Shown: positions 1 through 59,625, numbered from the stretch's first letter. The stretch: DNA of 61,771 bases from a virus (IMGVR_UViG_3300025030_000018:1-61771), one strand, 5' to 3'. Notes: generated by a model not told the origin, from the sequence alone. Program-made: numbers and translations.

Positions 1-127
1 CTAAAAGCCGGTCTCTCCCGGCTTGTCACGCCTGTTTTACACCGGCGTCCGTGTGCCCCCCGGCAGGTTATCAGTTAGTCTCTCTCTTTTCCTTGCCAGT
101 GTTTTCAGATATTTTTCTCGCAAGTTC
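1..127. repeat. Terminal direct repeat (copy 1), probably assembly overlap of a circular contig
   Basis: 1-127 identical to 61645-61771; 127 is a common assembler k-mer size. Confidence 0.95.
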
Positions 128-380
128 AGCGTTTATCTTCTCAGTCTCAGTAACAGGGCCATCGTTGAGAACTTGCAGAAAATAGGTATCTCCAAAATTG
201 TGTTTAAAGAGAAATATCCTCCCCTTACCATCGACTGCTTGAATCTTGTCGTACTTGTCGCCAGTTGAGCACCCGCTTAAAAACAGCAGCAGAACTGTAG
301 CGCCGATCACTATTTTACCCATGATCATTCACTCCTTTAATTTTTCAGGCGTTTTGCCCGATTGTACTTTCTACTCGCTC
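67..380 (-). mobile_element. Putative single-gene cassette C with conserved ends
   Basis: Minus strand GAGCG-AGTA-GAAAG-TACAA-TCGGGC-AAAAC-GCCTGA (380-345) and TAACTGATAAC (77-67) flank one ORF; the same ends occur at two other loci. Confidence 0.6.
71..328 (-). CDS. Small lipoprotein (cargo of cassette C)
   Basis: Hydrophobic signal with lipobox LLLFLSG-C; AAGGAG RBS; stop codon lies inside the TAACTGA motif. Confidence 0.7.
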   Translation of the reverse strand: MIMGKIVIGATVLLLFLSGCSTGDKYDKIQAVDGKGRIFLFKHNFGDTYFLQVLNDGPVTETEKINAELARKISENTGKEKRETN

Positions 381-397
381 CTAGTCATCATGTAACT

Positions 398-426
398 ACC
401 GTAACACATCTCCTACGGGGGTGCAA
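398..426 (-). promoter_or_regulatory. Sigma70-type promoter
   Basis: TTGCAC-17 nt-TACGGT with TGn extension, just upstream of cassette C. Confidence 0.5.
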
Positions 427-454
427 CAACTTTTTGTATCGCGGGTTACTAATT

Positions 455-1351
455 TTAGTGTGCCACTCCGATGAAGTCTAAGACCATGCCCATGCCCAAG
501 TAATCAATGCAGTATTTGTGCAGCTTCGGATGTGTCTCTTTCAACTTTACGAATCTCGGCTCCCTCTCCTGCATACACCCAAACATGCAGAACACACAGC
601 CTGTGCGGTCGTAGCCCATGTCATATATTGACGAATATTTGATCCCGGCCTTCAGGCATCGCCATATATCAGCCTCGGTCCAGATTGATAGTGGGCGGGA
701 CATGAGTTTTTTCTTTTCAAAAACATTGCACCCGGACGCCGCGTAGCTCCGCAGCCTCGCCCTACTGTCCGAGGCCATAACTCCTACGAACGGGACATCC
801 TCAGAGTCTTTGAGATGCTTGGCAAGCGGCTGCTTTTTCATGCAGGTACAGCAGGCTTCGCTGATCTTGAAAGGGGCGTCTACCAAGTAATGGTACTTCT
901 GAGGAATGACTCCTACAGTCTGGATTTTCCCTGTGTTCGGATTAACCCCTCCCCACAGTCTGAGGTTTCTCTGTGCCTCTGACTTGGTGTTTCTGCACCT
1001 GGATATAGCCATAGCTACTTCCTTGCTTATCACAGGGTAGCCGTACTTTTTGATTACTTCTCCGAAGGTCATCTTTGGGCGGAGCCAAATCACGTTCTGG
1101 ATCGTGCGGACAAACGCCAGTACCTCTGGGAACTCAAGCCCTGTGTTGACGAACACCGCCGGGACTTCAGGGTAAAGCTGTCGAACCAAGTACAGTAGAA
1201 TGGTAGAGTCCTTGCCGCCGGAGAAAGAGACATAGACCTTCCCTCCCCAAGCCTCATGCCACTCCCTGATCCTCTCTCGCGCCCATTCGATCTTCCAAAG
1301 GAGGTCCATCTCTTGACGCTGCTTGATCTCACACAGAGATGCGGACATCAA
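455..1351 (-). CDS. Phosphoadenosine phosphosulfate (PAPS) reductase family protein
   Basis: PP-loop SFSGGKDS, CC..MKK.P and RTGCxxC Fe-S motifs. Confidence 0.9.
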   Translation of the reverse strand: MMSASLCEIKQRQEMDLLWKIEWARERIREWHEAWGGKVYVSFSGGKDSTILLYLVRQLYPEVPAVFVNTGLEFPEVLAFVRTIQNVIWLRPKMTFGEVIKKYGYPVISKEVAMAISRCRNTKSEAQRNLRLWGGVNPNTGKIQTVGVIPQKYHYLVDAPFKISEACCTCMKKQPLAKHLKDSEDVPFVGVMASDSRARLRSYAASGCNVFEKKKLMSRPLSIWTEADIWRCLKAGIKYSSIYDMGYDRTGCVFCMFGCMQEREPRFVKLKETHPKLHKYCIDYLGMGMVLDFIGVAH

Positions 1352-2919
1352 TTCTCCTTTGCCAAATCAAGGATAATATCCTGAAGTCTCTTCTTCTCAC
1401 GCAACGCCGCGTACATTCGTTTTTCTTCTGCAGTGGCGTAGATGCAGGCGATGTCGATCTTGGTGTTCTGCTTGCTGCCATCGGTGCGGGCGTTGGCCTG
1501 TTGCACCTTCGCCGCCTTGACATATGGGGCGTACCAGATAGAGAGGGTAGCTGTCGTCAGGTCAAGGCCATGGGCCATGGTGTCTGGGTTGGCGAGGATA
1601 ATCCAAGGGTCGGGGAGAGTCCTGAACTCCCGGAATATTTTATTGCGCTGCGCTGGAGATGTGGCCCCTTCGACGATCGCCACTGACCACTTCTTCCTAA
1701 GCTCGGCAGCCAAGGTGTTGAGCGCCCCCGTGAACGGGACGAACACCAGCACCTTCTCGTTGTTCTCGGAGATCAACTCCTCCAGGATCTTGAGCCTCGG
1801 CCCGAAGTCGAACTTGACCATATTGCTGGAGGCGTCGTAAGCAACCCCACAGGCAATTTGTACCAATTTACTTAATAATACCGCAGCGTTAACCGCTGTG
1901 ATGGTCTGCCCGTTCAGGTCGGTCGAGGCCTGCCTGATCAACTGCTTGTAGGCTTTATCCTGCTCGGCTGAGAGTTCCGCCCGCCGGTCGATGAAACTCG
2001 GTTCCATAGTGCTGCATACCTTCCGCTCGAACCTGATGGCCGGCTTTAATACTCGCGCTACGACCTGCTCATGGCCTGGCTTAGGCAGCCACTTGAACTG
2101 CCGGAGTTGCCACATGGTCTCCTGCTTGAACGCGGTGAAGTGGCCCTTAAAGTTCTCAGGAGTAATCAATTTGCACTGGCCGAAGGCATCAGTAGGCTCG
2201 TTCGGCGTCGGGGTCCCTGTCAGCCCCCATGCGGACCTCGCAATCCCTTGGCGGTTCAGCACTTCGTTCAGTGGGGTCCACAGTACTCCGCCCTTCTTGT
2301 CTTTGGTCCTGCGGTTTTTCGCACTGCGCAGCTCGGCCAGTTCGTCCACGATGACGAGGTTGATGTCCGGCCTGGACTTCAAGGCTTCCTCGATTATGCC
2401 TACCCCATGGTGATTACAAATATAAAAATCGCAAGGCTTGGCGAGAAGGTCGAGGCGCTTTTGCCTCGGGCCGTGCAGGACAGCGAAGGTCCGGAGTGGG
2501 AAACTCTCGAAAATATTCTGCTCCCACACATCCCAGAGAGTGGAAAGCGGAGCGACGATCAGCGTCCTTTTTATCTGGCCGGCGAGGCGGAGGTAGTCCG
2601 CACCCCAGAGGGCACTCAAGGTCTTCCCAGTCCGCATCTCGGATAGGCAGTAGCAGCGGGAGTGAAGAGTAAAAAACTCCGCAGTTTCCACTTGGTACCA
2701 TCTCGGCTTATACCGCCCAGGCCACTCGTACTGCCGTCTGATCGGCGACTCAACCTTGATCCCAAGATTGTTGAGCACCCGAGCACTTTCCAGCGTGTGC
2801 GGCACAGCGACGAACCTCTCGCCTTTGATCGTCGCTTCCTTGATGTCTGGGAAGACGGCGCGGAGTTGGCTCGGGTTATTGTGCTTCAGCACAACGTGAT
2901 TGTCTAGGATGCGGATCAT
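1348..2919 (-). CDS. SNF2-family (SF2) helicase
   Basis: Walker A EMRTGKT, DE motif II (IVDELA), motif III LTGTP, HGLDL and Q...R C-terminal motifs. Confidence 0.9.
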   Translation of the reverse strand: MIRILDNHVVLKHNNPSQLRAVFPDIKEATIKGERFVAVPHTLESARVLNNLGIKVESPIRRQYEWPGRYKPRWYQVETAEFFTLHSRCYCLSEMRTGKTLSALWGADYLRLAGQIKRTLIVAPLSTLWDVWEQNIFESFPLRTFAVLHGPRQKRLDLLAKPCDFYICNHHGVGIIEEALKSRPDINLVIVDELAELRSAKNRRTKDKKGGVLWTPLNEVLNRQGIARSAWGLTGTPTPNEPTDAFGQCKLITPENFKGHFTAFKQETMWQLRQFKWLPKPGHEQVVARVLKPAIRFERKVCSTMEPSFIDRRAELSAEQDKAYKQLIRQASTDLNGQTITAVNAAVLLSKLVQIACGVAYDASSNMVKFDFGPRLKILEELISENNEKVLVFVPFTGALNTLAAELRKKWSVAIVEGATSPAQRNKIFREFRTLPDPWIILANPDTMAHGLDLTTATLSIWYAPYVKAAKVQQANARTDGSKQNTKIDIACIYATAEEKRMYAALREKKRLQDIILDLAKEN

Positions 2920-3062
2920 TGGCAGCAGCGAACGTACTGGTCGTACATATCTTCGGCGAATCGCTCCGAATCGAAGTCAAGTTCACGGTCTGCTCCGGAC
3001 TCCGCGGCGTAAATATCCAACAACTCTTCATTTTCTTCGTACCACTCTTCGAAATCCTTCAT
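2916..3062 (-). CDS. 48-aa highly acidic protein (not in ORF track)
   Basis: MKDFEEWYEENEELLDIYAAESGADRELDFDSERFAEDMYDQYVRCCQ; GGAG-rich RBS; ATGA overlap with helicase start. Confidence 0.7.
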   Translation of the reverse strand: MKDFEEWYEENEELLDIYAAESGADRELDFDSERFAEDMYDQYVRCCQ

Positions 3063-3129
3063 ACCTCTCCCTCCCTCCTCAAAAAGTCATACTTCTGAGT
3101 ATGTTTTCGGCCAGGTCTTTAAACGACAG

Positions 3130-3509
3130 GTTTTCAGTTAGTATCAGGCATGGTGCCTGACATTATTTTTTAAAAATATAGTCGTAATCATCACCGTATA
3201 CCTCGCGCCGTACTTCCTCTAAAACTTCCCCGAACGGCGGCTTCTTTTTAAGAAGTGCCCAATTATGCCCGTATCGCTCGATCATCCTCTTTGAGACTTC
3301 GTCGTCAATACTTTCTTCGCGGCCAGCGGCAGACTCGAACATTTCGTATTCCTGTTCAATGCGAGAGTCCATTTGGAAAAACCTTTCTTTTAGTTCTTCC
3401 ACCGACCTACTGGAGCTAAGTATGTAGCCGATGTGTTCTGTGTCTTTTTTATTCAAGTCATGCTCCTTTTTCGAGATTGCAAAATCTCGATACTACTTTC
3501 TTATCGTTC
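3130..3509 (-). mobile_element. Putative single-gene cassette A with conserved ends
   Basis: GAACG-ATAA-GAAAG-TAGTA-TCGAGATT-TTGC-AATCTCGA (3509-3471); TCAGGCA-CCA-TGCCTGA-TAC-TAACTGAAAAC (3160-3130). Confidence 0.6.
3163..3456 (-). CDS. Hypothetical charged helical protein (cargo of cassette A)
   Basis: 97-aa ORF, TTG start after AAGGAG, visibly AT-richer than neighbours. Confidence 0.65.
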   Translation of the reverse strand: MNKKDTEHIGYILSSSRSVEELKERFFQMDSRIEQEYEMFESAAGREESIDDEVSKRMIERYGHNWALLKKKPPFGEVLEEVRREVYGDDYDYIFKK

Positions 3510-3842
3510 AGCCTTAACCTTCTCCAGCCACTCTTGAAACGCTTTCAGCGTTGCCTCGCCGTCAACGACAAACACCGCGCCTCCCGAGGAGGCGATTGCA
3601 GAAATCTGCAAAGCCTGCAGTCCACTCGGCTTCTTGCCGAGGGCCTTTGCCTCGATAGCAAAGAACATGCCCAGATAGTGCCCGACTACGTCCGGGAGGC
3701 CTCCGATCGACATCGCCCCCTGCACCGCAGGATACCAGTACCCGTCAGCCTTCTCAAACGTGCCGGCCTTGGCCGCGGACAAAATATCATACTCGGCGAG
3801 GAGGGCGTAGATCAGCCGCTTCGTGCCCCCTTCAGGGGTCAT
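3501..3842 (-). CDS. VRR-NUC domain nuclease (Holliday-junction resolvase-like)
   Basis: TPEG...GLPDVVG...FFAIEAK...LQ...GG.VFVVD pattern. Confidence 0.85.
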   Translation of the reverse strand: MTPEGGTKRLIYALLAEYDILSAAKAGTFEKADGYWYPAVQGAMSIGGLPDVVGHYLGMFFAIEAKALGKKPSGLQALQISAIASSGGAVFVVDGEATLKAFQEWLEKVKAER

Positions 3843-4057
3843 ACGCCCTCCACCACAGCCATGCCCTTATCTCCTATCTGCAGACACAGTCTGGACATGA
3901 TCTGACCTCCATAGTAGACTAGCCACTTGTCGGTATCAGGCAGGTGATCTTCTGGGGACACCACGACTACGCCACGCTCACCGTTCGGATGGACGATGTA
4001 GTCCCCAACGTAAACGTCGTTGCCGGCGTAGTCAGTCCAAGGGGCTTTTCTTTTCAC
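3839..4057 (-). CDS. Hypothetical protein
   Basis: 72-aa ORF overlapping both neighbours by 4 nt. Confidence 0.6.
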   Translation of the reverse strand: MKRKAPWTDYAGNDVYVGDYIVHPNGERGVVVVSPEDHLPDTDKWLVYYGGQIMSRLCLQIGDKGMAVVEGV

Positions 4058-4566
4058 TTCACCACCTCCATCAAGTAAACCGCCTGAGACTTGGCATCGT
4101 CGAGTGCGTTGTGTGCCGTGCCTTGGTACGACCGGTCGATCTTAGGATACATGGCTCTCACCGTGCGGAAACACCTGTCGTTCCTGAACGACCAAGGAGC
4201 AGTCAGGCCCAGGCGGTCGTAAGCCGAGCGGAGGATAACGTTATCAAAGGCTACGCCGTTGCCCCAGACTGGCACATCCTCGCCGGCGGACTGCACCCAC
4301 GCCTTGAACAAGCGAAGTACGAAGTCAATGTCCTTCCCCGGCCTCTTAAACGCCGCCCGGGCCTCATCGCTCTGCTGCATCCACCAGAGGATAGTCGAGG
4401 CGTCAACGGTGCCGCCGGCCTTCATTGCCGAGTCGAGGTCAACGACCTCATAAAACTCCCGGCCGATGGTCTTGGTGTCGAGGGAGAACTCGACCCCTCC
4501 TATGGCTATTATGGCTGCGTCTGGGCGGTTGCCCATTGTTTCTAAATCTGTCATGATGTCGGTCAC
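4054..4566 (-). CDS. DEDDh 3'-5' exo(ribo)nuclease (RNase AS-like)
   Basis: DLET, T..WW, WGNG..FD, HNALDDA motifs. Confidence 0.85.
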   Translation of the reverse strand: MTDIMTDLETMGNRPDAAIIAIGGVEFSLDTKTIGREFYEVVDLDSAMKAGGTVDASTILWWMQQSDEARAAFKRPGKDIDFVLRLFKAWVQSAGEDVPVWGNGVAFDNVILRSAYDRLGLTAPWSFRNDRCFRTVRAMYPKIDRSYQGTAHNALDDAKSQAVYLMEVVK

Positions 4567-4579
4567 TTACTTCCTCCTC

Positions 4580-4723
4580 TCAATAGTCGTAAAAATCGTA
4601 GTCAGGCTCCCCCGCCCAGTCGTCATCGGCGAAGTAGTCTTCGTCCTCATCGATGACCTTGTACGCCGGGTCCTCGGCGTTATCGTATTTTTCTTGAGCG
4701 CGGTCGAAGCGTTGTTGGTTCAT
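4580..4723 (-). CDS. 47-aa highly acidic/aromatic protein (not in ORF track)
   Basis: MNQQRFDRAQEKYDNAEDPAYKVIDEDEDYFADDDWAGEPDYDFYDY; AAGGAGG RBS. Confidence 0.65.
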   Translation of the reverse strand: MNQQRFDRAQEKYDNAEDPAYKVIDEDEDYFADDDWAGEPDYDFYDY

Positions 4724-4737
4724 TTGGGGGGCCTCCT

Positions 4738-4899
4738 TTATTCATCGTTTTGGCAGTGGCAGCGGTCGCTGATAGCCCCGCAGTAGACGCAAATGCCCTC
4801 AGTCGTTTTCTCAATGAACTCCATCCGGTCCTCATCGTTCTGGAAAGACTTCAGAAGTTCGTTGATCTGTTCGGCTTGTTTTATAATCAGTAGGTTCAT
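4738..4899 (-). CDS. Small Cys-rich hypothetical protein
   Basis: Start re-called at MNLL (ATGA overlap); C-terminal CxxC..CxC. Confidence 0.6.
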   Translation of the reverse strand: MNLLIIKQAEQINELLKSFQNDEDRMEFIEKTTEGICVYCGAISDRCHCQNDE

Positions 4900-5588
4900 C
4901 TCCTTCCCCCTTTGCCACAATGGGCACATGAAGCAACTTCGCACCAGCCTCGGCACAAGCCGCTGGGTTTCGGGTCAAATCGCTCAGTCCGCCATGCGGA
5001 CTTCATCCTCTCCACCCATCCGAGGATCTCCTCCCACATCGCTGGGATATCTTCTTTCGAGAAGACGCCGTCTTTCGGAGTCACCGCGTCGTGCTTCAGC
5101 CAGATGTACTTGGTAACGAAGGTCTCGATCTCTGGGTGCTTGAGCGCCAAGAAGCAGGCGTTGATCTTGAGCTGGAGGGAGTCCTCACGGATGCCACCAG
5201 TTTTCCAATCTAAGCATGTGATCTTGTTATCTTTTTTCAGACTAACATCAATTTTACACCTGCCGTAAGCCGTCTTGTCGAACCACTTTACGAACTTCAT
5301 GTTCTCGTCGATCGCCAGTTCCTGCTCGGCGAAGAGGGTGCCTCCGGATGACTCAAGAATCCTGCAATACTTCTCGCCGCGGGTGTAGCCTGCCGGCAGC
5401 GGGGTCTTCTTGAGAAGCCGGTCCTCGAGATGCTTGTGCTCGATTGTCCCCTGCTTCATGGCCTCGATCTCCCGGTACGGGATCGTGACATAGAACCGCT
5501 TGGCTGCATAACTTAGTGGGCACGTAATGTAGTCAGCGATAGCTGATGGAGACCAGGAGAAGTTCTTGCCTACGGCGTTTTTTAGCAT
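4896..5588 (-). CDS. PD-(D/E)XK (RecB/Cas4-like) exonuclease
   Basis: WSPS...CP, G...H, E..D..DWKTG, QL, C-terminal CxxC....C. Confidence 0.85.
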   Translation of the reverse strand: MLKNAVGKNFSWSPSAIADYITCPLSYAAKRFYVTIPYREIEAMKQGTIEHKHLEDRLLKKTPLPAGYTRGEKYCRILESSGGTLFAEQELAIDENMKFVKWFDKTAYGRCKIDVSLKKDNKITCLDWKTGGIREDSLQLKINACFLALKHPEIETFVTKYIWLKHDAVTPKDGVFSKEDIPAMWEEILGWVERMKSAWRTERFDPKPSGLCRGWCEVASCAHCGKGGRR

Positions 5589-5604
5589 TTGGGGTCCTTG
5601 GTTT

Positions 5605-6376
5605 GTTATCAGTTACAATCGGGCATGATGCCTGACATATTTTTAACCGTGGTAATCGACGGTGACACAGATCCAGTCTTCTTTGGGCGTCACCTTTTCG
5701 GCATACTCTTTTCTGTAGTTTTTAAGTTTGCCCGCCCACTCTGACACCGCCGACAGAACCTTTTTGTCCCATGTGGTATCAACATGATTGACGCCATTCC
5801 ACATTGAGTCAGACAGCATAAACTTTGCCTCCATCTTCTTGTCATCGTAATCAAGCCCAGCTATGATAACCCTTGAACATGTCAGATTTTCCGGGATTTC
5901 ATCAACTCGGCAGATGTCACAAGAAAGGAGGTCGTTGCTATCGTATTGATTATTTGAATGGGCGAACAGCGGACATGCCACAATCTCACCATTTTCAGTG
6001 GGGAAGAACTCGTTCCAGATGTTGTCAACTAGGGGGATTTGACTTTTCGGCTCAAGCGACTGCTTGCCAGCCTGAATCCCTGATACCGTCACCTTGTTTT
6101 CTTGCAGCTTCACATAAAACTTCTCTAACGATTCCGCGTTATATGTGCATTTTTCCTTCGTTCCGGCCCACCTCCCACCAATAACAAACCAATCCCAAAA
6201 CGAGTGACCTGAGTGGTCTTCGCTTTCCTCGTTATTCTCACTAAACGGCAGCATGATCTCTTCAATTGACTTGCTGATATCTTTGGTTTTGGGCATGATA
6301 ATTTCGCAATGATAGTGCATGTTTTTCGCTCCTTTTTGTTCGGGCGTCATTGCCCGATACTACTTTCCTATCGCTC
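5605..6376 (-). mobile_element. Putative single-gene cassette B with conserved ends
   Basis: GAGCG-ATAG-GAAAG-TAGTA-TCGGGC-AATGAC-GCCCGA (6376-6340); TCAGGCA-TCA-TGCCCGA-TTG-TAACTGATAAC (5635-5605). Confidence 0.6.
5643..6320 (-). CDS. Hypothetical phage protein with WDWxxIGGRW...VDYH motifs (cargo of cassette B)
   Basis: Start re-called at MHYHCE after AAGGAG; AT-richer than core genes. Confidence 0.7.
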   Translation of the reverse strand: MHYHCEIIMPKTKDISKSIEEIMLPFSENNEESEDHSGHSFWDWFVIGGRWAGTKEKCTYNAESLEKFYVKLQENKVTVSGIQAGKQSLEPKSQIPLVDNIWNEFFPTENGEIVACPLFAHSNNQYDSNDLLSCDICRVDEIPENLTCSRVIIAGLDYDDKKMEAKFMLSDSMWNGVNHVDTTWDKKVLSAVSEWAGKLKNYRKEYAEKVTPKEDWICVTVDYHG

Positions 6377-6533
6377 ACCCAATCCTCACAGTATTCCCAT
6401 GGTCGTTATACATCTCAACCTCGGAGACGGGTTCAAACTCAGGCTCGTCCTCGCCTTGCCAGTCCACCAAGCACTCCACCTCCATGTCCGGAGGGAATTC
6501 TTTCAGTTTGTCTATCAGGTCTTGGACTTTCAT
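6375..6533 (-). CDS. 52-aa acidic protein (not in ORF track)
   Basis: MKVQDLIDKLKEFPPDMEV...; GGAGGAG RBS; its stop overlaps the cassette B end. Confidence 0.7.
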   Translation of the reverse strand: MKVQDLIDKLKEFPPDMEVECLVDWQGEDEPEFEPVSEVEMYNDHGNTVRIG

Positions 6534-6793
6534 TTAGGCTCCTCCAACAACTCTCCTCCAAAGATTTTCCTTTGCCCAAGGCGCACTACTTCGCCGAAGT
6601 CTTTGCCTGCGGCGGCAGCCATCAAGGACATCTTGGCCGCATTCACTTCGACCTGGATGGACTTGTTAATAGCCTCCATGCCTTCAATGACGCACGTAGC
6701 CCGGTCCGCCGGCATAGCGCCCTCTTTAACCGCCATCATCACTTCCAATATCAGTTTTCTGGAATCTCCAACAGTTTCAACTATGTCTTTCAT
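6530..6793 (-). CDS. Hypothetical helical protein paired with upstream repeat protein
   Basis: 87-aa ORF, AAGGAG RBS, overlaps upstream gene. Confidence 0.7.
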   Translation of the reverse strand: MKDIVETVGDSRKLILEVMMAVKEGAMPADRATCVIEGMEAINKSIQVEVNAAKMSLMAAAAGKDFGEVVRLGQRKIFGGELLEEPK

Positions 6794-7412
6794 TGACTGT
6801 CTCCTTTAATTGTTTTAATGCTCGATGTAATAGCAGTTGTGCTTTTTTGGCTTCGTACAGTTCGGTTGGCATATTTGCGGCGGATATGCCCATCGCCTTT
6901 GCAACATATCTAGGAAGTAATTCATGTATTGCGTGTGCCTGCCACATTCTGTAGTGGTCTCGTAATCGCTCCCTATTATTTATGTTCCAGGCCTTTTTCG
7001 CCTCTTTTGTACCCTCGTAGTACCTTCTCCTATACTTCTGCAAATACTCCGTATTATTTTCGCGCCATTTTTTCCTGTACGCAATATTACGGTCTTTATT
7101 CGTAGCCTGATATTCTTTATACCGATCCTTATTCTCCGCGTAGTATCTTCGGCCGTACTCCCTCGCCTGGTCCTTATTCGCCTCCCGATACTGTTTTTTG
7201 CGGGCACTGATCTGGTCCTTGTTTGCTTCTCTCCACGCCTTACTACGATCAAGTAGCTGCTCCTTGTTCTTTAAGTAATAATCTTTTCGGTGAGCAAGTA
7301 TCTGCTCCTTGTTCTTTAAATAGGCGGCTCTTGCCTGAGCACTTAGCTTGTCCTTGTGCTTCTCCCGGTACTCTCGCCTGTACGCTGCTTTTTCTTCTGG
7401 AGTTTTTGCCAT
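6777..7412 (-). CDS. Basic protein with about 15-aa (Y/W)RExNK(D/E) repeats
   Basis: Repeats such as YLKNKEQ, WREANKDQ, YREANKDQ; no HNH motif visible. Confidence 0.75.
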   Translation of the reverse strand: MAKTPEEKAAYRREYREKHKDKLSAQARAAYLKNKEQILAHRKDYYLKNKEQLLDRSKAWREANKDQISARKKQYREANKDQAREYGRRYYAENKDRYKEYQATNKDRNIAYRKKWRENNTEYLQKYRRRYYEGTKEAKKAWNINNRERLRDHYRMWQAHAIHELLPRYVAKAMGISAANMPTELYEAKKAQLLLHRALKQLKETVNERHS

Positions 7413-7492
7413 TAGTAATATCCTCGAAAGAAATTCACCCTCGCTTTCAGTCCAGGAGTTAACCGTCCGCGAGGGTGTTTGCGCACGGTCTG

Positions 7493-8037: not shown

Positions 8038-10236
8038 TCATTTCTCACATTCTCCATAAGAGACAGCGTACCCTCCCGACGACTTCAGCGGGAGGTCGGG
8101 GCACCAGGAAGGTGCGGTTGCCATTTCTACCTTCATCATCTGTAAGCACTCGTCGGCGTACCTCTCAGGCACGACCGTGATTAGTTCGTCGTGGGTGCTA
8201 GACACGATCTCCGCGACCTCGCCGGGGCGCAGGGAGTACTCCCGCAGCCGGGGGATAACCTTCAACGCTTGGTCGGAGATGACCAGTCGGGACAAAGCCT
8301 GGGTGCCATTTTCCGCGCATTTACCAGCATATAGCTTAGTCCACTCTTTCTTTCTTACGTTCGCCAGATACTTATAGTCGCCACTGTCAGACTTCCGGAG
8401 CTTGCTATAGCGGATCTTCATGCCGTTTGGCAGGACGTATCCTTCCTTGTCCGTATGCACCAGCGGCCTGCCGCCCACCCCGCGCTCTTGGCCGAGGAGG
8501 ATGTCAGTAAGGGACGCCTGGCAGTCCTTCCATAATGCCGTCACTCTGTTGTTCGAGGATCGGAACGAGTCCACCAGAAACTTCGTCACGGCGCAGTGCG
8601 TCAAGTGATCGTCCAAGGCTACATTCAGCGGGCAGCAGGCTTCGGCCTCTTCGTAGGCGTAGGTGAACCCCTTCTTATAGGACTTCTGATACCTGAACGC
8701 CTCGACATCGACGCCCAGTTGCTTGACGTAGGTCTGGTCGAAGATGATACCCTCCATCCCCATGAACCCGACCCGGACGCTCTCCTGCAACTTCCAGGCC
8801 CCCATCTGATAGCCGCATCCGAGAATGATAATCTTTCCTACCTGCCCCGCCGTCTTGTGCTCGGGGTTTGTCTTCCGACTGATCGGGTAGCCGTAAACTT
8901 TCGTCGCCATGAAGTCGTAAGGGTCGCCGCCGGCACGGAACATTTCAAGCATATCCTCTTGACCGGCCCAGTAGCAGAGCATCCGCGCCTCGATCTGGCT
9001 CAGGTCGCGCACAACCACAACATGCCCCGGAGGGGCGCAGAGCGACATCCGCAAGGCCCCGGCAGTAGGGTCTCGGTCGTCTACCCGGTTCAGGTTCTGG
9101 GCGTTCTGCTTATCCCCGCCGCTCCATCTATTTGTGTGGGCACCGTAGTAGTTCAGGTACACCGGGAACTTCCCTCGCTTGCCGATCTTATAGAACCGTT
9201 TGGTCCGGGTCTCCTTGATCGTGGACTTCACCCCGAGCCTGGCCTCGACCACTGCCTGGACCTGCGGGTCCGGGTGATCCTGAAGCATTTTGAACTCCTC
9301 GTCCGACTTGCCAAAGGCATAGGCCCAAGGGTAAACTTTCCCCTCGGCTTTCAACTCGGCAGCGCGAGCCTTGTAGTCACCCTGCGTCATGCCCGCCGCC
9401 TTGGCGTCTTTCCAAGGGATCATCTTGAACGACGGCAGTATCCCGCTCGGCGGATCGCCCACGTTGTCCGGGTCCACCCTGCCGTCTTTTATTTTGGCCG
9501 GGCTTAATTTCTTATGCGGGTCTACGCCCATAGTGAGCAGCAGGGCGGCAAACTTGTCGCCGGAGGAGAGCACGGTCTTGTCGGACACGCACTGCCTGAT
9601 CAGCGCCCGTTTGCGCCTCCGCTCCTGCTTATACGCCTCGACAAGCGGGGCCTGGTCCACGACGAACACCGGCTCAGTAAACCGCCGGATAGTCCAGTCG
9701 ATCAACCGCAACTCCGACACCGGGAAGTGGCCCTTGAGCGCATCGAAGATGTCAGCGGTCAGCTCTACGTCGTTGCAGCAGTACCCACCCATGATCTCCT
9801 GCTCTGCATCTGTCAGGTGCCATTTGCCTGCGAAGTGGACAAGCTCGGTGCCTTTCTCCCCTACACCGAGGAGTTTTGCGACGTTGGCGAGGCTGGAGGA
9901 CTCGTGCGGGAAGATCGCTCTTGCCATAGACAGAGTGCATCCCCAGAACGCTGGGCGGATGCCGCAGCGCCAAGTAAGGATTGCCCCGTCAAAATGACTG
10001 TGATGTGCGATGACAAAGGAGTCGTGCCACGGATGGGTTCGTAGGAAATGCACGAGGTCGTCCGGTTTGTAGATGTAAAACGCTTTGTCGCGGTCGATCT
10101 TCACTCCCAGGCCGTGGGCTTTGAATAGCTTGTGCCTCACATATTCTTCGCTGGTCATCCGGGAGAGGGTGATATTTTCCTGTGTTATCGGGTGCTTGCC
10201 GTATGCCGACTCCCAGTCAAGTACTGTTCGGATCAT
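8038..10236 (-). CDS. Family A DNA polymerase with 3'-5' exonuclease domain
   Basis: Exo DWE, H..FD, Y...D; motif A DLSQIEAR; motif B K...LGCGY; motif C THDE. Confidence 0.95.
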   Translation of the reverse strand: MIRTVLDWESAYGKHPITQENITLSRMTSEEYVRHKLFKAHGLGVKIDRDKAFYIYKPDDLVHFLRTHPWHDSFVIAHHSHFDGAILTWRCGIRPAFWGCTLSMARAIFPHESSSLANVAKLLGVGEKGTELVHFAGKWHLTDAEQEIMGGYCCNDVELTADIFDALKGHFPVSELRLIDWTIRRFTEPVFVVDQAPLVEAYKQERRRKRALIRQCVSDKTVLSSGDKFAALLLTMGVDPHKKLSPAKIKDGRVDPDNVGDPPSGILPSFKMIPWKDAKAAGMTQGDYKARAAELKAEGKVYPWAYAFGKSDEEFKMLQDHPDPQVQAVVEARLGVKSTIKETRTKRFYKIGKRGKFPVYLNYYGAHTNRWSGGDKQNAQNLNRVDDRDPTAGALRMSLCAPPGHVVVVRDLSQIEARMLCYWAGQEDMLEMFRAGGDPYDFMATKVYGYPISRKTNPEHKTAGQVGKIIILGCGYQMGAWKLQESVRVGFMGMEGIIFDQTYVKQLGVDVEAFRYQKSYKKGFTYAYEEAEACCPLNVALDDHLTHCAVTKFLVDSFRSSNNRVTALWKDCQASLTDILLGQERGVGGRPLVHTDKEGYVLPNGMKIRYSKLRKSDSGDYKYLANVRKKEWTKLYAGKCAENGTQALSRLVISDQALKVIPRLREYSLRPGEVAEIVSSTHDELITVVPERYADECLQMMKVEMATAPSWCPDLPLKSSGGYAVSYGECEK

Positions 10237-12168: not shown

Positions 12169-12413
12169 AAGTCCGCTCCGTAAAGAATTGGTGAGTGGTG
12201 CCCCTCGAACATTACCGAGAGGGCGTAGTCGTCGTAGGGGGCTTGGTGACTGTCCGCTGAAGCGGCGTCTTTCTGCCCGAACTTGAACGCTTGGGCCTCA
12301 TCTTCAGCCTCGACGTGGGCCACGTAAACGTCCTGGCCGTGTGGAGAGTTCTCGCACAGGTAGTCCGGACGGAGTAAAACGACGGTGTATTTTTTCCTTA
12401 AGTTATTACTCAT
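12165..12413 (-). CDS. Hypothetical protein
   Basis: 82-aa ORF with ATGA overlaps. Confidence 0.6.
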   Translation of the reverse strand: MSNNLRKKYTVVLLRPDYLCENSPHGQDVYVAHVEAEDEAQAFKFGQKDAASADSHQAPYDDYALSVMFEGHHSPILYGADL

Positions 12414-12961
12414 GCGGTTTCTTCAGCCTCCATTCTCATAATGGTTTTAATGGTCTCGATATACTGTCGGTACTGTTTGCCGTGGTCGGTGCCGTTGTGA
12501 TTTTTCTCAACTGCCGCCTCGAACGCTGCGAGGTCGCCTTTAAAGCAGCCACAAACGACTTGGACAGTTTCCCCCAGCCAGTAGGTCGTAGTCTGGGCGT
12601 TGCGCGATCCGATCTTTTTGCCGGTGTACCTGTTCGGGTTCTCCTTGAAGTCGGAGCAGTCGGAGCAGTCGGAGCAGTCGGAGCAGTCGGAGCAGCTGGA
12701 GCAGTCGGAGCAGTCGGAGCAGCCGGAGCAGTCGGAGCAGTAGCGGCAGTCGGAGCAGTCGGAGCAGCCGGAGCAGCCGGAGCAGCCGGAGCAGTAGCGG
12801 CAGTAGCGGCAGCCGGAGCAGTCGGAGCAGTAGCGGCAGCCGGAGCAGTCGGAGCAGTTGGTTAAGGTCTTTGAAAAGTTCTCGGCCTGGGCCTCGGTGT
12901 AAATGTCAGCGTCCCAGCGATTATTATTGTCGTCGTAGTACCCTCCGTTTTTTAAGATCAT
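12410..12961 (-). CDS. Cys-tripeptide repeat protein with IGSR...CGCF.G C-terminal domain
   Basis: 23 tandem Cxx units followed by a C-terminal domain familiar from phage repeat proteins. Confidence 0.8.
   Translation of the reverse strand: MILKNGGYYDDNNNRWDADIYTEAQAENFSKTLTNCSDCSGCRYCSDCSGCRYCRYCSGCSGCSGCSDCSDCRYCSDCSGCSDCSDCSSCSDCSDCSDCSDCSDFKENPNRYTGKKIGSRNAQTTTYWLGETVQVVCGCFKGDLAAFEAAVEKNHNGTDHGKQYRQYIETIKTIMRMEAEETA
12650..12856. repeat. 9-bp tandem repeat, 23 units
   Basis: Units GTCGGAGCA / GCCGGAGCA / GTAGCGGCA encoding CSD / CSG / CRY on the minus strand. Confidence 0.95.
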
Positions 12962-13818: not shown

Positions 13819-14472
13819 TTAGTCTTCATCTTGATTAAACCTACGCTCTTTGAGCGTGGCGGCTACGCCGCGTAGGGTGATCAGCATATGTCGGGGTATG
13901 ACGTACTCTCCTGACTCGTACCTGTTCACGGTGGCTCGGCTGACTCCGAGGAGTACTGCGAGCTGGGCCTGGTTGAGTCCGAAGGTTTTTCTTAAGAGTT
14001 TGAGGTGCTCGGGTTTGGCTCTGGGCGCTTCGGCCTCAGATGGCCGGGAAGGGTGCTCAGAGGCCCGTGGGTCGTCCGTTTGAGGGAAGGGTATATGTCC
14101 GGTAGGGTCAGCGTGCAAATGGGCCAGAGAGAGGAATTTCAGCAGTGCTTCAGGGGCGTGCTGGCTGCGCTCCAGGGCTTCCCACTCGTCAGGGAGCAGG
14201 TAGAACTTTTCAGCGGCGTCGGAGATGGTCCAGCCGAGTTTGGTCCGGAGGGTTGCGATATCCTGGCCGGACTTGTCGGGCGCACGGTCGGATGTCAGGA
14301 GCAGCTTATTGATCTCGTGGTCCTGCTTAGGGTGGACCTTAAGCTGTCCGGACTCTTTTCGGCGCAGGGTGCGACCGTCCATGAGGAGGTACTCGGCCAA
14401 GGCTGCCTGTGACATGTTGAGGGCCTGACGCTTCAGGCGGATCAGGTGGTGTATTGGTTGGGTGGTGTACAT
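13819..14472 (-). CDS. Protein with three XRE-type HTH domains
   Basis: MSQAALAEYL..RRKESG; WTISDAAEKF..WEALE; LNQAQLAVLLGVSRATVNRYESG. Confidence 0.85.
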   Translation of the reverse strand: MYTTQPIHHLIRLKRQALNMSQAALAEYLLMDGRTLRRKESGQLKVHPKQDHEINKLLLTSDRAPDKSGQDIATLRTKLGWTISDAAEKFYLLPDEWEALERSQHAPEALLKFLSLAHLHADPTGHIPFPQTDDPRASEHPSRPSEAEAPRAKPEHLKLLRKTFGLNQAQLAVLLGVSRATVNRYESGEYVIPRHMLITLRGVAATLKERRFNQDED

Positions 14473-14475: not shown

Positions 14476-14820
14476 CTATTCCTCTATAGATGCGAAGAGT
14501 TCGCGAAGGGATTCAGTGAATGCCGCAGGTATTCTCCGCTTACCGCTTTCATATCGCTGCCAAGTGCGGTAGCCGATACCGGCCAGGTCTGCCGCTTCCT
14601 TCTGAGTGAGCCTGAGGGAGTTGCGGAAAAGGATCAAGTCTTTTTTATCGCCCTCTGGTCGTAGGAGGTGCGCAAGTTTTGCCTCAGATTTCTTGGTCAC
14701 TATTCTTTCCCCGGTCTCCAAGAGGTTGAGGTGCCAGATAGGGATCTTAGTTGCGGTCGCCACCTCTGAGAGGGTAAGACCTTTTGCAAGGCGCAGGGTT
14801 TGCAATTCTTGTGATGTCAT
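14476..14820 (-). CDS. Protein with two XRE-type HTH domains
   Basis: GLTLSEVATAT..LETG; LTQKEAADLAGIGYRTWQRYESG. Confidence 0.85.
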   Translation of the reverse strand: MTSQELQTLRLAKGLTLSEVATATKIPIWHLNLLETGERIVTKKSEAKLAHLLRPEGDKKDLILFRNSLRLTQKEAADLAGIGYRTWQRYESGKRRIPAAFTESLRELFASIEE

Positions 14821-14855
14821 CGGTTCTCTCCTTGATGTTTTGTTCTCTTGTCTCC

Positions 14856-14884
14856 TTTATACAGCCACGCCCAAAAAGTGTCAA
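14856..14884 (-). promoter_or_regulatory. Near-consensus sigma70 promoter of the HTH operon
   Basis: TTGACA-17 nt-TATAAA; the spacer contains one copy of the ACGCCCAAAAA repeat. Confidence 0.75.
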
Positions 14885-15930
14885 GGAAAATGTCTGTGCT
14901 TGTGACATTCTAGTTAACAATTTTATTTTTGCTGTGATTCCAATAGGATGCATTTTTCGGGCGTGTTTTGTCAGAGGGGGCGTGTCCGAGATAGGGCGGT
15001 TTTTCGGCGTTTACGCCCAAAAAATGCTCCGATCAAAAAAATCGTGCACCAAAATGTGCTTGAAATTATTAGGAAAGTGGATTTTTTTGTTAAAAAAATA
15101 AAAAGAAGAAAGAGAGATTTTAATATTTTACGCCCTAAGTCGTTACACCTGGAGAGTAGGTGTGTTGTTAGGCAGAGGGGTGGGAGGCCAAAAAGAGGTG
15201 TAACGACTTAGGGCGTAAAATTTCAAAAATGATGATGTTTTTTTTTTTTTTTTAACAAACCAAAAAAATTATTATTACTTACTTACTTATAAAATATATA
15301 ATAATAATAAGGCTTTTGCGCTGGACACCAGCAAAAAACTTTGTGAAAAAAATTTTGGGCATTTGTAACTTTCATACACCAAAAACGCCGTTTTTCGCCC
15401 CAACTCGTTACAAAAAAATGTAGCAAATGTCCGCGTCCTATAACAAATTGTTACGCAAATGTCCGCCCTGTTACGCCCAAAAAATGCGAAATGCCCTATC
15501 TCGGAACAAAAAAAGCTGAAAATGTCCTATCTCGACACGCCCAAAACTCGCGCTAACGCCCAAAACCTGCCCGAAGCACGCCCAAAAACTACCCAAAACA
15601 CGCCCAAAAAGTGCGCAAAACTAGAGCGGTTTGCCCGACAGTTTTCAAGGGCAGCACACGCCCATTTTCGGCTTTTTTGGCCTGTTTGTGAAAAACTTTT
15701 TAACAAAGACATTTTTGGTGCTCGACTTAGGGCGGTTTTTACCTCCCATTTCAGTGTCCGACTTAGGGCGCTTTGTTAACTCAGATGTAACAAATGTTAC
15801 TCTCGGTTAACGTTTTTACGCTCGACTTAGGGCATTTTCCCGCCCTCTAAGCGTAACGCCTTGTTACGCCAAGTTAACAAAAAGCCCCATCCCGTGTCCG
15901 AGATAGGGCGGTTTTCGTGTAACAAATCGG
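14860..15930. repeat. Non-coding repeat-dense region with AT-rich core, putative replication origin
   Basis: 7 copies of ACGCCCAAAA, 9 of CGA(CT/GA)TAGG(G/A)C in both orientations, a 26-bp perfect inverted repeat, 23-bp direct repeats at 14981 and 15893, poly-T/AT tract at about 15220-15312. Confidence 0.6.
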
Positions 15931-15936
15931 ACGGTT

Positions 15937-16116
15937 TTACGTCCAGAACGACCTTCCGCAACTCGTACATTGGTGCTCGTGTAAGTAGGTGGGCTTGTCG
16001 TCTGGATCGTCTTCTGACTCCGCTTTCCATAATACGAGGTGCAGGCGGATCTCTGTATTTTTGCAAAACGGGCAGCCTGTGATGTCTTTGATTGTGTGCT
16101 TGAAGTTTTTTGGCAT
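15937..16116 (-). CDS. 59-aa zinc-ribbon protein (not in ORF track)
   Basis: CPFC ... CTSC; GAGGGG RBS. Confidence 0.65.
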   Translation of the reverse strand: MPKNFKHTIKDITGCPFCKNTEIRLHLVLWKAESEDDPDDKPTYLHEHQCTSCGRSFWT

Positions 16117-17452: not shown

Positions 17453-17788
17453 TTAAATTTCCTCATTATCAAATAAGTCATCTGCAAGCGGTTTCCCGCA
17501 GCACCTACAAACTAACTCGCCCTTTTCCTCATAGTCGTAATCAACAATGTGACTGCATTCCGGGCAGGTATCGGCGTCCCATTCCTCCATTTTTTTAGTA
17601 TAAGTATCGCATATTCTAACGTGCTCATTCCAGGTATCAAGTGTTAATTCCCATTGTGTGGAGCAGAAATAACAGGCTACATACTGGCGGTCCTCGGTAT
17701 GAAGTTTTGTCGCAGCCATATAATGCCGATTACACTCCGGGCATGTGTTATTATGCAACGCAGTGATTATTTCTTTTTGGCTTATCAT
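17453..17788 (-). CDS. Double zinc-ribbon protein
   Basis: CPEC..CYFC and CPEC..CRCC; GGAGG RBS. Confidence 0.65.
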   Translation of the reverse strand: MISQKEIITALHNNTCPECNRHYMAATKLHTEDRQYVACYFCSTQWELTLDTWNEHVRICDTYTKKMEEWDADTCPECSHIVDYDYEEKGELVCRCCGKPLADDLFDNEEI

Positions 17789-44917: not shown

Positions 44918-46393
44918 ATGGCTGATCTTGCGAGATATAAGCGCCCTGACGAAGTTTACAGCATTTACGCCCCTGGCACCCCGACTGTGGCGGCGCAGGA
45001 CAAGATGACTACCGCTGTTGTTGCGCCTATAAGGCGGGCAGTAGATGACGCTGTCACTATGACAGGGGGTAAACTTGTGCAGCGAGGGATAAACGCTTTG
45101 GCTGCTACCTCGGCTGCTAACGATGCGGCGGTAAATAGGTACAACCTCCAGTCTGGTATTGTCGACCGACGTAACGAACTTATGCGGGAATCGACTCTTC
45201 CGGGAGGGGTGCTTCCGCCTCAACCAGTGGTGGCAGCCGATCCTCCTGTTCCGGCGGGTCTGCAGCGTGACGGCATCCAGAGTGCTGGATGGCAGCCTGC
45301 CGCATCGCCTGTCGCTTCACAGAACGACCTCGCAATAAAAGACAGCATCGCCAAGATCGACGCAGCCATCGCTGGGGGGATGCGGCCGTCGGCCGAGCAG
45401 GCCCAGCGCATCGCTGCCATTAAGCAGCAGGCAGGCTTCTTACGCGGCAGTCCGTCAGGGCCTACCGGGACGCGGTCGGTGCCGCTGCAGGCCCGGACAG
45501 GAGGCATCCGCCGAGTAGGTAACATGGACGTTCAGTTCGCCCCGGGCACCGACGCCGCAGCGCAATCTAGGTTCCTTGAAAATCCAGTTCGACCAACTGC
45601 GCAGATCAATCGGTTCAACGCCAGTCGAGGGCTTGACGCCGGCCAAGGTATCCGCGCCGCGCAGAATGCAGACAGGATACTTGATCGCCCCCCGCAGGGA
45701 GGCCCAGGCCCTACGCTCCTTACCAGAGAAAACTCTCCCGGGATGGGGTGGAAGCAACGCAGCAAGCTCAACGAGCAGCTTCTCGCTAACGAGCAGTCCG
45801 GGCAGAACGCCAGATTGCAGTCAGAAACTTCGTTTGGCACCGCCGGTATCCAGGCCGACACTTCGCGACTCGGGTTCCGTAACCAGCGGGAGATCGCCGG
45901 TATCCAGGCCGACACTTCGCGACTCGGGTTCCGTAACCAGCGGGAGATCGCCGCAGCCGGCGACGCAGTACAGATGGACAGGAACAAGATTCTCGCCTCC
46001 GAGGCTGAGTCGCAGAATGCCTATCGCGGGGTGCAGGCTGCAGAACTCCCCAAGGAGAACGCCTCGCAGCAGGCAGAACGATCAGCGCGAGCGGAGCAAG
46101 CGGCAGCGACCACGGCCGGGATTCGACAGGCTACGGAGCAAGGGAAACTGATGAAGTTCTCCAGAGAAGTTCCGAACTCAGTCGATCCGAAGTTTGGGGT
46201 GCCAATGAAGCAAGAAGGGTTCTACAACCCGTTGACGGAGAAAACGATTATTCCCGGAGAACTTGGGATGCGGAGCGCAGCACCTGCAGTACCACAAGAC
46301 GCCTCGCAGCTAGTGGTAGGTCAGACGTACACTGCCGCAAACGGCAGTCAGGTTATATGGGACGGTAAAGGCTTTAAGAGGATATCCAACTAA
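44918..46393 (+). CDS. Putative internal virion/ejection protein
   Basis: 491 aa, Ala/Gln-rich and low complexity; precedes the giant gene; AGGAGG RBS. Confidence 0.6.
   Translation: MADLARYKRPDEVYSIYAPGTPTVAAQDKMTTAVVAPIRRAVDDAVTMTGGKLVQRGINALAATSAANDAAVNRYNLQSGIVDRRNELMRESTLPGGVLPPQPVVAADPPVPAGLQRDGIQSAGWQPAASPVASQNDLAIKDSIAKIDAAIAGGMRPSAEQAQRIAAIKQQAGFLRGSPSGPTGTRSVPLQARTGGIRRVGNMDVQFAPGTDAAAQSRFLENPVRPTAQINRFNASRGLDAGQGIRAAQNADRILDRPPQGGPGPTLLTRENSPGMGWKQRSKLNEQLLANEQSGQNARLQSETSFGTAGIQADTSRLGFRNQREIAGIQADTSRLGFRNQREIAAAGDAVQMDRNKILASEAESQNAYRGVQAAELPKENASQQAERSARAEQAAATTAGIRQATEQGKLMKFSREVPNSVDPKFGVPMKQEGFYNPLTEKTIIPGELGMRSAAPAVPQDASQLVVGQTYTAANGSQVIWDGKGFKRISN
45841..45953. repeat. Exact in-frame 54-bp tandem duplication
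   Basis: 45841-45894 = 45895-45948 (AGIQADTSRLGFRNQREI twice). Confidence 0.95.
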
Positions 46394-53164: not shown

Positions 53165-53446
53165 CTAATTTGGAGAGTAGCCTATCTGCGCAGAATGTGC
53201 AACAGGTTTCTTTACCGCCCACCCATTCTTTTTCGAGTACGTGAGTACTCCGGCCTTTCTCAAGGCGAACAATCGGCGGTTAAGAACGTTGTACGGGGTT
53301 TTGTAGGTGCTGCTCCCCAGGCCGATAACTTCTTCGAACACTTTCCCGTCCATCACTATGTCATACATCTGGCATTTACCCTCGAGATTGGCTACTCTTT
53401 CCAGGATTAAGCCATCTATGGCAGCGACTTTTTCTTGAATGCTCAC
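53165..53446 (-). CDS. Hypothetical protein, possibly winged-helix
   Basis: 93 aa; LNRRLFALRKAGVLTY...GW; AAGGAG RBS. Confidence 0.6.
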   Translation of the reverse strand: MSIQEKVAAIDGLILERVANLEGKCQMYDIVMDGKVFEEVIGLGSSTYKTPYNVLNRRLFALRKAGVLTYSKKNGWAVKKPVAHSAQIGYSPN

Positions 53447-54432: not shown

Positions 54433-54433
54433 A

Positions 54434-59611: not shown

Positions 59612-59625
59612 GGTTTCTCCGAGAG

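Follow-up and report, generated by a model that had tools for sequence, protein, structure and literature searches.

Strain-variable accessory-gene cassettes with two types of end module in the replication operon of an uncultured 61.8-kb phage

The cassettes and their end modules

We analysed the virus record IMGVR_UViG_3300025030_000018:1-61771, a stretch of 61,771 bp referred to below as the window, and in particular three small gene cassettes, A, B and C, that are set in the minus-strand replication operon of this 61.8-kb phage. Minus-strand genes occupy positions 1 to ~18,700 and 53,165-61,673, and the structural genes lie on the plus strand. The minus-strand products include a PAPS-reductase-like protein, an SNF2-type helicase, a 3'-5' exonuclease, a PD-(D/E)XK nuclease, a DNA polymerase and a primase/helicase. 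The first and last 127 nt of the record are identical (1-127 and 61645-61771); judged by its length, this terminal repeat is likely an assembly overlap of a circular or permuted genome rather than a pair of true termini. Cassette C has its 3' end inside this repeat, which also contains a terminator-like hairpin. A blastn search of window positions 1-7000 against the INPHARED phages gave no match.

All three cassettes are read from the minus strand. Each has a 5' module, an open reading frame (ORF) with its own Shine-Dalgarno (SD) site, and a 3' module, and each sits between complete genes. Cassette A (3130..3509) carries a 97-aa ORF (3163-3456), and cassette B (5600..6376) carries an ORF of ~225 aa (5643-6320) that could be extended to an ATG at 6350, inside the 5' hairpin loop; the 3' module is full in both. 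Cassette C (67..380) has an 85-aa lipoprotein-like ORF (71-328) and a partial 3' module. The cassettes open with GARCGA-N3-GAAAGTA-(GT/CA)-ATC, followed by a stem-loop, an A-rich tract, the SD site and the start codon, and they close with TAACTGA(A/T)AAC. In A and B, GAT(AC/TG) and a 7-bp stem with a 3-nt loop come before the closing motif, and the start of the opening GARCG-N4 overlaps the stop or C-terminal codons of the upstream gene. Within the window, the 5' box pattern has no match outside the three cassette starts. TAACTGAWAAC, allowing one mismatch, is found at the three cassette ends, in a single-mismatch copy inside gene C (101-111) and in two images produced by the terminal repeat.

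The 5' module of cassette C (345..380) comprises the GAGCGA-N3-GAAAGTACAATC box at 380-360 and a stem-loop at 361-345, after which come an A-rich tract, AGGAG and the ATG at 328. Its hairpin folds at about -9 kcal/mol and includes one G-U pair. That of cassette A (3471..3509) begins with GAACGATAA, whose TAA is the stop of the upstream gene 3501-3842, and continues with the GAAAGTAGTATC box (3500-3489) and a stem-loop (3490-3471; -8.5 kcal/mol). The 8-bp stem of this hairpin is unlike those of B and C in sequence, yet it is still paired. In cassette B (6340..6376), GAGCGATAG and the GAAAGTAGTATC box (6367-6356) lead into a stem-loop at 6357-6340 (-11.7 kcal/mol), an A-rich tract, GGAG and the ATG at 6320. 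A -10-like hexamer, TAGTAT or TACAAT, lies within the box in all window copies. A near-copy of the box with two mismatches occurs at 29655-29671 (minus), on the non-coding strand of a 694-aa gene (28924-31008), and a similar string is present at 17478-17490 of the related contig L037. This near-copy is probably a coincidence of coding sequence.

The 3' module of cassette A (3130..3160) consists of a 7-bp stem with a 3-nt loop (3160-3144; -12.0 kcal/mol) followed by GATACTAACTGAAAAC at 3145-3130, and the TAA stop of the cargo lies within an A-run immediately upstream. Read on the plus strand, it is a hairpin followed by a T-run, which scored as terminator-like. In cassette B, the module (5605..5635) has its stem-loop at 5635-5619 and GATTGTAACTGATAAC at 5620-5605; the stem (-6.4 kcal/mol) contains one A-C mismatch on the coding strand that becomes a G-T wobble on the plus strand. 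The partial module of cassette C (67..82) is GAGACTAACTGATAAC, with the cargo TGA stop inside it. It has no hairpin and folds to 0.0 kcal/mol, the hairpin half of the 3' arm being missing. Sigma-54, sigma-28 and sigma-70 readings of the 3' module, compared by eye with consensus sequences, were rejected because spacing or key bases do not fit: GA stands in place of the -12 GC, there is no conserved TAAA, and there is no -10 T.

The two module types are related to each other. A 12-nt core, TASWATCRGGCA, is present in 4 exact copies against 0.08 expected, and 0 of 100 shuffled sequences reached 4. Of these copies, the two at the starts of B and C are on the minus strand, and the two that end A and B are on the plus strand. 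Looser single-end patterns were less striking, with 5 matches against 1.48 expected and 8 against 4.24. When the five ends are turned to one orientation they align, the 5' ends reading AAGTA-SW-ATC and the 3' ends CAGTTA-SW-ATC. The 5' and 3' modules share a core of 12-13 nt in opposite orientation, with a constant offset of one base (AAGTA vs CAGTTA). The cassettes are in this sense discrete units with related inverted ends, as the initial annotation had described them, and the extra T in the 3'-end core corresponds to what it called a bulged A. Terminal inverted repeats with the core AGT[T]ASWATCRGGCA in opposed orientation are found at the ends of A and B; the 3' end of C retains the outer half only. 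Since the core is common to both modules, pairing is possible between any 5' and any 3' end, with one A left unpaired. The complementarity of the ends is real, exceeds chance as a repeat family, and reflects an imperfect inverted repeat.

The cargo is low in G+C: 0.42 for C, 0.426 for A and 0.453 for B, against 0.541 for the genome, which places the cassettes among the lowest 5-10% of windows of the same size. None of the three cargo proteins has a Pfam family. The ORF of cassette C has no PHROG match either, and its translation, judged by eye, appears to begin with a lipoprotein-type N-terminus. For the A protein we found a weak PHROG match only (phrog_2052, unknown function, E 0.0076) and no usable match in the protein atlas, and a protein search returned no relatives. 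For the B protein, the sole relative found is a 74% identical protein encoded on an AT-rich phage contig (L051) without such ends. In the protein atlas the B protein is present from residue 11 on and is placed among viral hypothetical families.

We compared helicase-bearing loci from viral contigs (11) and metagenomes (14), two overlapping sets. Only the closest of them (L037, the same as L071, with a 96% identical helicase) has any such motif. At site C, L037 carries a tRNA-His (GTG) gene at 9643-9717, and its homology to the window breaks at 378 and resumes at 66. At site B it has a different insert of 223 bp, in which a variant 5' module precedes a small ORF and the 3' module is missing, and at site A it has ~1.8 kb of other DNA with several ORFs. 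It retains TAAGAAACTAG at site A and the box and hairpin at site B, with different cargo at each. The breakpoints relative to L037 fall at or inside the modules and not at one fixed nucleotide. Cassette A and the motif are both absent from three relatives at 78-79% (L072, L079, L080). Contigs assembled from public DNA runs join 66 to 378 (X1, X5) and 5599 to 6377 (X5), and contigs from X1, X3 and X5 join 456 to 1370 with 14 other letters between. These joints include one run from another study, with 66|378 and 5599|6377 among its contigs, and they most likely represent L037-like genomes, hence are not fully independent. Cassettes A, B and C are accessory inserts that vary between strains and occupy hot spots of a conserved replication module; their cargo is exchanged at or inside the end modules between co-occurring phages.

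Two further stretches vary without having end modules. The PAPS-reductase-like gene (455..1351, minus; Pfam PF01507, 2.3e-25) is a strain-variable insert beside cassette C and is absent from L037. The region 6543-7436, with genes 6530-6793 and 6777-7412 and a G+C content of 0.44, is skipped or replaced in the X5 contig and diverged in L037.

Occurrence of the modules in other phages and in bacteria

Pattern searches of IMG/VR returned few real copies. A 15-base 5' pattern matched 36 loci, approximately the number expected by chance, and inspection by eye found the full layout in L018, L029 and L030 only. A 16-base extended 5' pattern gave 9 loci and a 3' pattern 10, all chance-like and lacking a hairpin; a hairpin pattern gave 8 loci, of which L030 alone is real. 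The exact 17-nt 5' box occurs in the same layout in those three contigs. In L030, the box is followed by a hairpin, an SD site and an ATG, and the cargo ends in CACTAACTGA. In L029, it is followed by a long hairpin and then an ORF with a canonical hairpin and T-run terminator at its end. In L018, the box comes after a terminator-like hairpin and before an SD site and ATG, and the cargo ends in GACTGA only. The terminator-ended cargo of L029 and the position of the L018 box behind a terminator both fit a promoter-gene-terminator unit.

L030 is otherwise unrelated to the window by alignment: there were two blastn matches, one to a 5' module and one to a 3' module, and 0 tblastx matches. Its 3' module follows a different gene (234 aa) than its 5' module does, and the hairpin is degenerate. 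With the two modules on different genes of L030, the 5' and 3' modules occur independently of each other. The order of stop codon, box, hairpin, A-rich tract, SD site and ATG is found in 3 of 3 window copies and again in L030, L029, L018 and, as a variant, L037. In 7 of 7 copies the 5' module is upstream of a start codon, at a distance of ~90 nt in L029. The 5' hairpins were folded sequence by sequence, L018 not being among the six, since the loop lengths were too unequal for pairs to be counted in an alignment (MAFFT). All six form a hairpin at the same place, with energies of -7.9 to -17.2 kcal/mol and loops of 4-10 nt. Two contigs from one Geobacteraceae metagenome-assembled genome also contain a 5'-type copy behind a strong hairpin.

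We scanned 185,579 species genomes with the hairpin pattern of the 3' module and obtained 86 loci, a number at or below chance, and read 80 of them. The flank TCAGT was also present in two of those 80 against ~0.08 expected, and both are from Desulforhopalus. One genome, G005, contains three copies of the 3'-type unit. In Desulforhopalus genome G004 there are 12 copies at up to 2 mismatches, compared with 0 for a reversed-pattern control; a match was obtained in just one other of the 60 family members searched. A 321-nt query gave 23 matches in G004, and 17 of these start at query positions 57-62, at most 5 nt from the TCAG edge (62). Most G004 copies are not palindromic and most are without a hairpin. 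In 4 of the 12, the reverse complement of the 5' box (TACTTTC) lies 19-45 nt beyond the edge, which amounts to a 3'-type end followed by a 5'-type start. A reading of the unit as a CRISPR repeat or solitary repeat was rejected, as no locus found by pattern matching had more than one match.

A small array at L208 11436-13381 is made up of three of the G004 copies together with ORFs that are DsrC-like, ABM-domain or unknown; Rfam had no match on it. The ORFs beside the G004 and G005 copies are, by Pfam, ordinary chromosomal genes or have no match, and they include no common neighbour. No transposase lies beside the 11 G004 copies inspected, although the genomes were not searched exhaustively. 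A serine recombinase is encoded 3.5 kb from the array, and nothing ties it to the array. The bacterial analysis was carried out in depth for this one genome, and copies of each module are few.

Some G004 copies have features of their own. In the copy L195, the core forms a perfect 10-bp palindrome. At L191 5147-5983, a unit copy with such a palindrome lies upstream of a leader and a CbiK gene; by eye, the leader looks like a cobalamin riboswitch. A 666-nt segment with the ABM gene, flanked by two units, is duplicated elsewhere in G004 at 94.7% identity. We recovered no empty site among the phage relatives, and in G075 and G080 the CbiK orthologues have lost upstream synteny.

Other repeats are present in the window. 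About 23 overlapping copies of a 9-nt period (family D1) at 12595-12897 are triplet-periodic and lie inside a minus-strand ORF (12410-12961), where they may encode a repetitive peptide. The mostly non-coding region 14800-16100 contains a 23-nt repeat five times (14981, 15717, 15753, 15893 and 15916, two of them identical) together with several GGGCGT-rich repeats, and it adjoins a helix-turn-helix regulator gene (13819-14472). We see this region as a candidate for an origin or operator. Within ORF 44918-46393, a stretch of 54 nt is perfectly duplicated in tandem (45841-45948).

Portable modules and competing explanations

The explanation to which we give about half of our confidence is that A, B and C are three strain-variable accessory-gene ('moron') cassettes, each bounded by two portable modules that have expression and transcript-end roles and that guide swapping. 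The 5' module, which runs from a stop codon through the box GAAAGTA(GT/CA)ATC and a stem-loop to an A-rich tract and an SD site, would set up expression of the cargo, as a promoter and/or as a stabilising 5' leader with the translation start. The 3' module, beginning at the cargo stop with a stem-loop and continuing with GAT(AC/TG)TAACTGA(A/T)AAC, would punctuate the transcript as a 3' hairpin. On the opposite strand it reads as a hairpin and T-run and may block antisense transcription. These promoter and terminator activities are putative. The same modules in many co-infecting genomes could serve as short patches of homology for cargo swaps, a recombination mechanism that we infer by analogy with promoter early stem-loops (PeSLs), for which the same has been proposed. 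Breakpoints that are spread within the modules fit recombination within short shared modules.

The window contains no match to PF01797, the Y1 transposase family of IS200/IS605-type elements with hairpin ends (control positive in 10/14), none at E<=1 to the tyrosine recombinase family PF00589 (control positive in 14/14 genomes), and no sigma-70 region 2. With no transposase, tyrosine recombinase or sigma-70 region 2 in the phage, host machinery must read the modules.

Several observations weigh against this explanation. In a sigma-70 scan, C alone scored (ATGACT-16-TACAAT, 9/12), and no -35 is conserved. On the coding strand, the hairpin of the 3' module is followed by TACTAACTGA, and the T-run of an intrinsic terminator is present on the plus strand only. 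The genome has only three module-bearing copies, all on accessory genes. In G004, the neighbouring ORFs are in mixed orientation relative to the unit, and similarity decays inward after 45-220 nt from an outer edge that is razor-sharp, an edge more typical of a mobile-element terminus. Regulation leaves the inverted orientation of the core and the constant one-base offset unexplained, and inverted copies, if they recombined, would flip the cassette between them without excising it. The missing -35, the missing coding-strand U-tract, the unexplained inverted core and offset, and the sharp G004 edge all feed two alternatives in which the ends are sites of DNA mobility.

In one of these, the main rival, which we consider possible but rather doubtful, the cassettes are non-autonomous elements of the type of mobile insertion cassettes (MICs) or cargo-bearing MITEs (miniature inverted-repeat transposable elements). 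Their terminal inverted repeats (AGT[T]ASWATCRGGCA) would be imperfect, the left and right ends being distinct, and a host transposase or recombinase would move them in trans between Desulfobulbales chromosomes and their phages. The ends are indeed inverted repeats, every copy seen has the one-base asymmetry between left and right, and the cargo is diverse and low in G+C. At C, the insert begins and ends where the two modules have their outer ends. The 3'-type end is found again in Desulforhopalus, where the copy number in G004, the clustering of match starts at the TCAG edge, the four copies that look like one cassette end next to the start of another, and the small array at L208 all suit such an element. 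However, A, B and C show no target-site duplication, with no flanking direct repeat beyond an imperfect GATAR, and no transposase was found in the phage or beside the G004 copies examined. Modules also occur singly, the 5' type in L029 and at site B of L037 and the 3' type on the 234-aa gene of L030; the L037 breakpoints lie inside the 5' module instead of at its edge; and neither the phage relatives nor the CbiK locus, which is not syntenic in G075 and G080, yielded an empty site. The other alternative takes the modules as halves of a site-specific recombination site that, when joined, folds as a single-stranded DNA hairpin with an extrahelical base, analogous to attC and unrelated to it in sequence. 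We think this quite unlikely. The offset base is conserved across the window, L030, G004 and G005 copies, the composite sites in 4 of 12 G004 copies are compact, with the boxes 19-45 nt apart, and the palindromic L195 and the array-like tandem units of G004 point the same way. Clusters of attC sites without an integrase have been reported in virulent phages (PMC9892861). Against it, the R''/R' boxes (RYYYAAC/GTTRRRY) are absent: the strings compared by eye, TACTAAC, TTGTAAC and TAGTAAC on one side and GTTAGTA and GTTACAA on the other, fit neither. The window encodes no integron integrase or tyrosine recombinase, the phage halves are split by cargo and do not form one site at the cargo 3' end, and most G004 copies are not palindromic. 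Complementarity at the variable box position is found in just one of the four composite sites of G004 and in two of four phage cassettes.

Two more readings were considered, and we hold both to be very unlikely. The promoters used by the virion RNA polymerase of N4 are hairpins with 3-nt loops and a central G on the template strand, and the 3' hairpins of A and B, with 7-bp stems and TGG and TGA loops on the plus strand, could be such promoters ahead of the downstream backbone genes. A 2234-aa protein of the phage (46406-53110) matches PHROG 2206, 'virion RNA polymerase', over residues 1082-1273, but the same stretch matches a solved 'internal virion protein' (9sfn_G, residues 995-1247, E 1.2e-28). 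The protein has no Pfam family, the window has no match to the T7-type RNA polymerase family PF00940, for which the control was silent too, and the PHROG label is probably misleading. The C-terminal part of the protein has DarB-like and other giant-protein PHROG matches. L030 and most G004 copies lack the hairpin, and the 5' hairpins would point the wrong way; N4-like promoters are therefore very unlikely here. The initial annotation had instead proposed that the cassette ends pair in RNA as a bulged-A helix, forming a minimal splicing or branching element or a switch between local hairpins and a long-range helix. The strings that it quoted are all on the minus strand where it had placed them. 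Cassette A has the 5' arm GTAGTATC (3497-3490) and the 3' arm GATACTAAC (3145-3137), with TGCCTGATACTA at 3150-3139 and UACUAAC within the 3' arm. Cassette B has the 5' arm TAGTATCGGGCA (6362-6351) and the 3' arm TGCCCGATTGTA (5625-5614), and the 5' arm of C, TACAATCGGGCA (366-355), is the exact reverse complement of the latter. The best pairing partners do belong to different cassettes. This agrees with end modules that are shuffled or shared, and the initial annotation had itself offered end shuffling and a recombination substrate as alternatives. The claim of compensatory changes stood in part: GT and CA alleles exist, but they are not matched within cassettes and are compatible in 2 of 4 (GT:AC in A and in L030, against GT:TG in B and CA:AC in C).

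Folding gave this RNA helix little room. Random 20-mer pairs from this genome have a mean duplex energy of -7.8 kcal/mol (sd 3.6). The trans duplexes B5:A3 (-19.2 kcal/mol) and C5:B3 (-21.0) fall among the best 1% of such pairs, but the cis duplexes are weak, at -9.3 for A5:A3, -14.8 for B5:B3 and -5.0 for C5:C3, and that of B has two mismatches at the dinucleotide said to covary. Local hairpins (-6.4 to -12.0 kcal/mol) occupy bases that the long-range helix of B needs, and two of them, at -11.7 and -6.4, would have to melt. The minimum-free-energy fold of the cassette A transcript includes a short end-to-end helix, whereas the centroid fold consists of two local hairpins only (z = -1.3; 9 of 100 shuffles fold at least as well). 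Rfam 15 has no match to the whole window at gathering score, group II introns included, and at E<=1 its sole match to positions 1-7000 is an unrelated plant-virus pseudoknot (E 0.24). The cassettes start with GAGCG or GAACG, with A at position 2, and not with GUGYG; the 3' AC of a group II intron is present but trivial. No gene is interrupted or re-joined: upstream ORFs stop at the unit or just within it, each downstream ORF has an SD site and start of its own, and the flanking genes are intact in L037 with other inserts and in L072, L079 and L080, which have none at site A. Were the box a promoter, moreover, the 5' arm would not be transcribed with its own cassette. The splicing reading is unsupported because cis pairing is weak, Rfam has no match and the genes are uninterrupted. 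We regard splicing or branching, and with it the intron-like termini, as already largely refuted, and give hardly any credence to a functional end-to-end RNA helix.

Relation to known systems

The resemblance to group II introns is superficial. It comes down to three points: the 5' end is rich in purines, one copy has a UACUAAC-like box, and an A that lies 8 nt from the 3' end is unpaired. The cassettes have no GUGYG, domain V or Rfam match, and their 314-777 nt include an ordinary translated ORF. The 'mini-intron' reading is thereby removed. Integron attC sites and clusters of attC sites lacking an integrase (CALINs) are closer in kind: as described in PMC9892861, they too involve gene cassettes, imperfect inverted repeats, a conserved unpaired base and bacterial arrays, and the integrase need not be near. 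However, an attC is one site of 57-141 nt 3' of the cargo, whereas the halves here are at opposite ends of the cargo and there is no IntI.

MICs and MITEs are described as non-autonomous elements derived from insertion sequences (ISs) (PMC3129680), and the mycobacteriophage mobile elements (MPMEs) as elements of this sort that move within phage genomes and have one conserved ORF each (PMC3029335). The cassettes resemble them in size (0.3-0.8 kb), in imperfect terminal inverted repeats, in having passenger genes and no transposase of their own, and in the multiple sharp-ended copies in bacteria. They differ in that no target duplication, cognate IS or transposase was identified and in that modules also occur singly. 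Unlike in MPMEs, the cargo is unrelated from cassette to cassette.

It is conceivable, though improbable in our estimate, that the ends AAGTA.../...TAACTG with their one-base difference belong to an undescribed cassette exchange system common to Desulfobulbales and several unrelated phages of the same habitats. Joined ends would then fold with an extrahelical base and be cut and re-joined by a host enzyme, in the manner of integrons or single-stranded DNA transposons, by a mechanism with no sequence relation to attC or known IS ends. Whatever the mechanism, the gain and loss of single accessory genes in phages has been documented mechanistically for few groups (PeSLs of T4-like phages, MPMEs), and with the cassettes, gene exchange guided by modules between phages and bacteria can be put to the test. 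The end modules also provide a sequence tag for accessory cassettes in metagenomes, and the Desulforhopalus copies give a lead to the host of this uncultured groundwater phage.

The closest parallels to accessory-gene cassettes with portable modules are morons and PeSLs. Morons, reportedly described by Hendrix and colleagues, are said to be independent promoter-gene-terminator units in phage genomes. The cassettes are likewise single accessory genes of deviant G+C content between backbone genes, with expression signals of their own and presence or absence among relatives, but morons are not defined by a conserved pair of ends that recurs across unrelated phages and a host. The PeSLs of T4-type phages are described as a stop codon, promoter, stem-loop and SD site beside variable ORFans, one class having the stem-loop downstream of the -10 (PMC2839356, Arbiol et al. 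2010), and cassette exchange has been proposed to take place at these modules (PMC2839356; PMC4122927, Comeau et al. 2014). There are differences: the phage described here has no conserved sigma-70 -35 and three copies per genome as against about 50, its 3' module is also found in bacterial chromosomes, and its promoter and terminator activities are putative. PeSLs are direct repeats, whereas the flanks here are two module types with an inverted core and a one-base offset, so that simple excision of a circle by homologous recombination from flank to flank is not expected. The likeness lies in the upstream stop, the promoter-like box, the stem-loop and the SD site next to variable ORFans, and in the indels and replacements that separate relatives at the modules. 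The PeSL position is found in all seven 5' modules and the stem-loop in all six that were folded.

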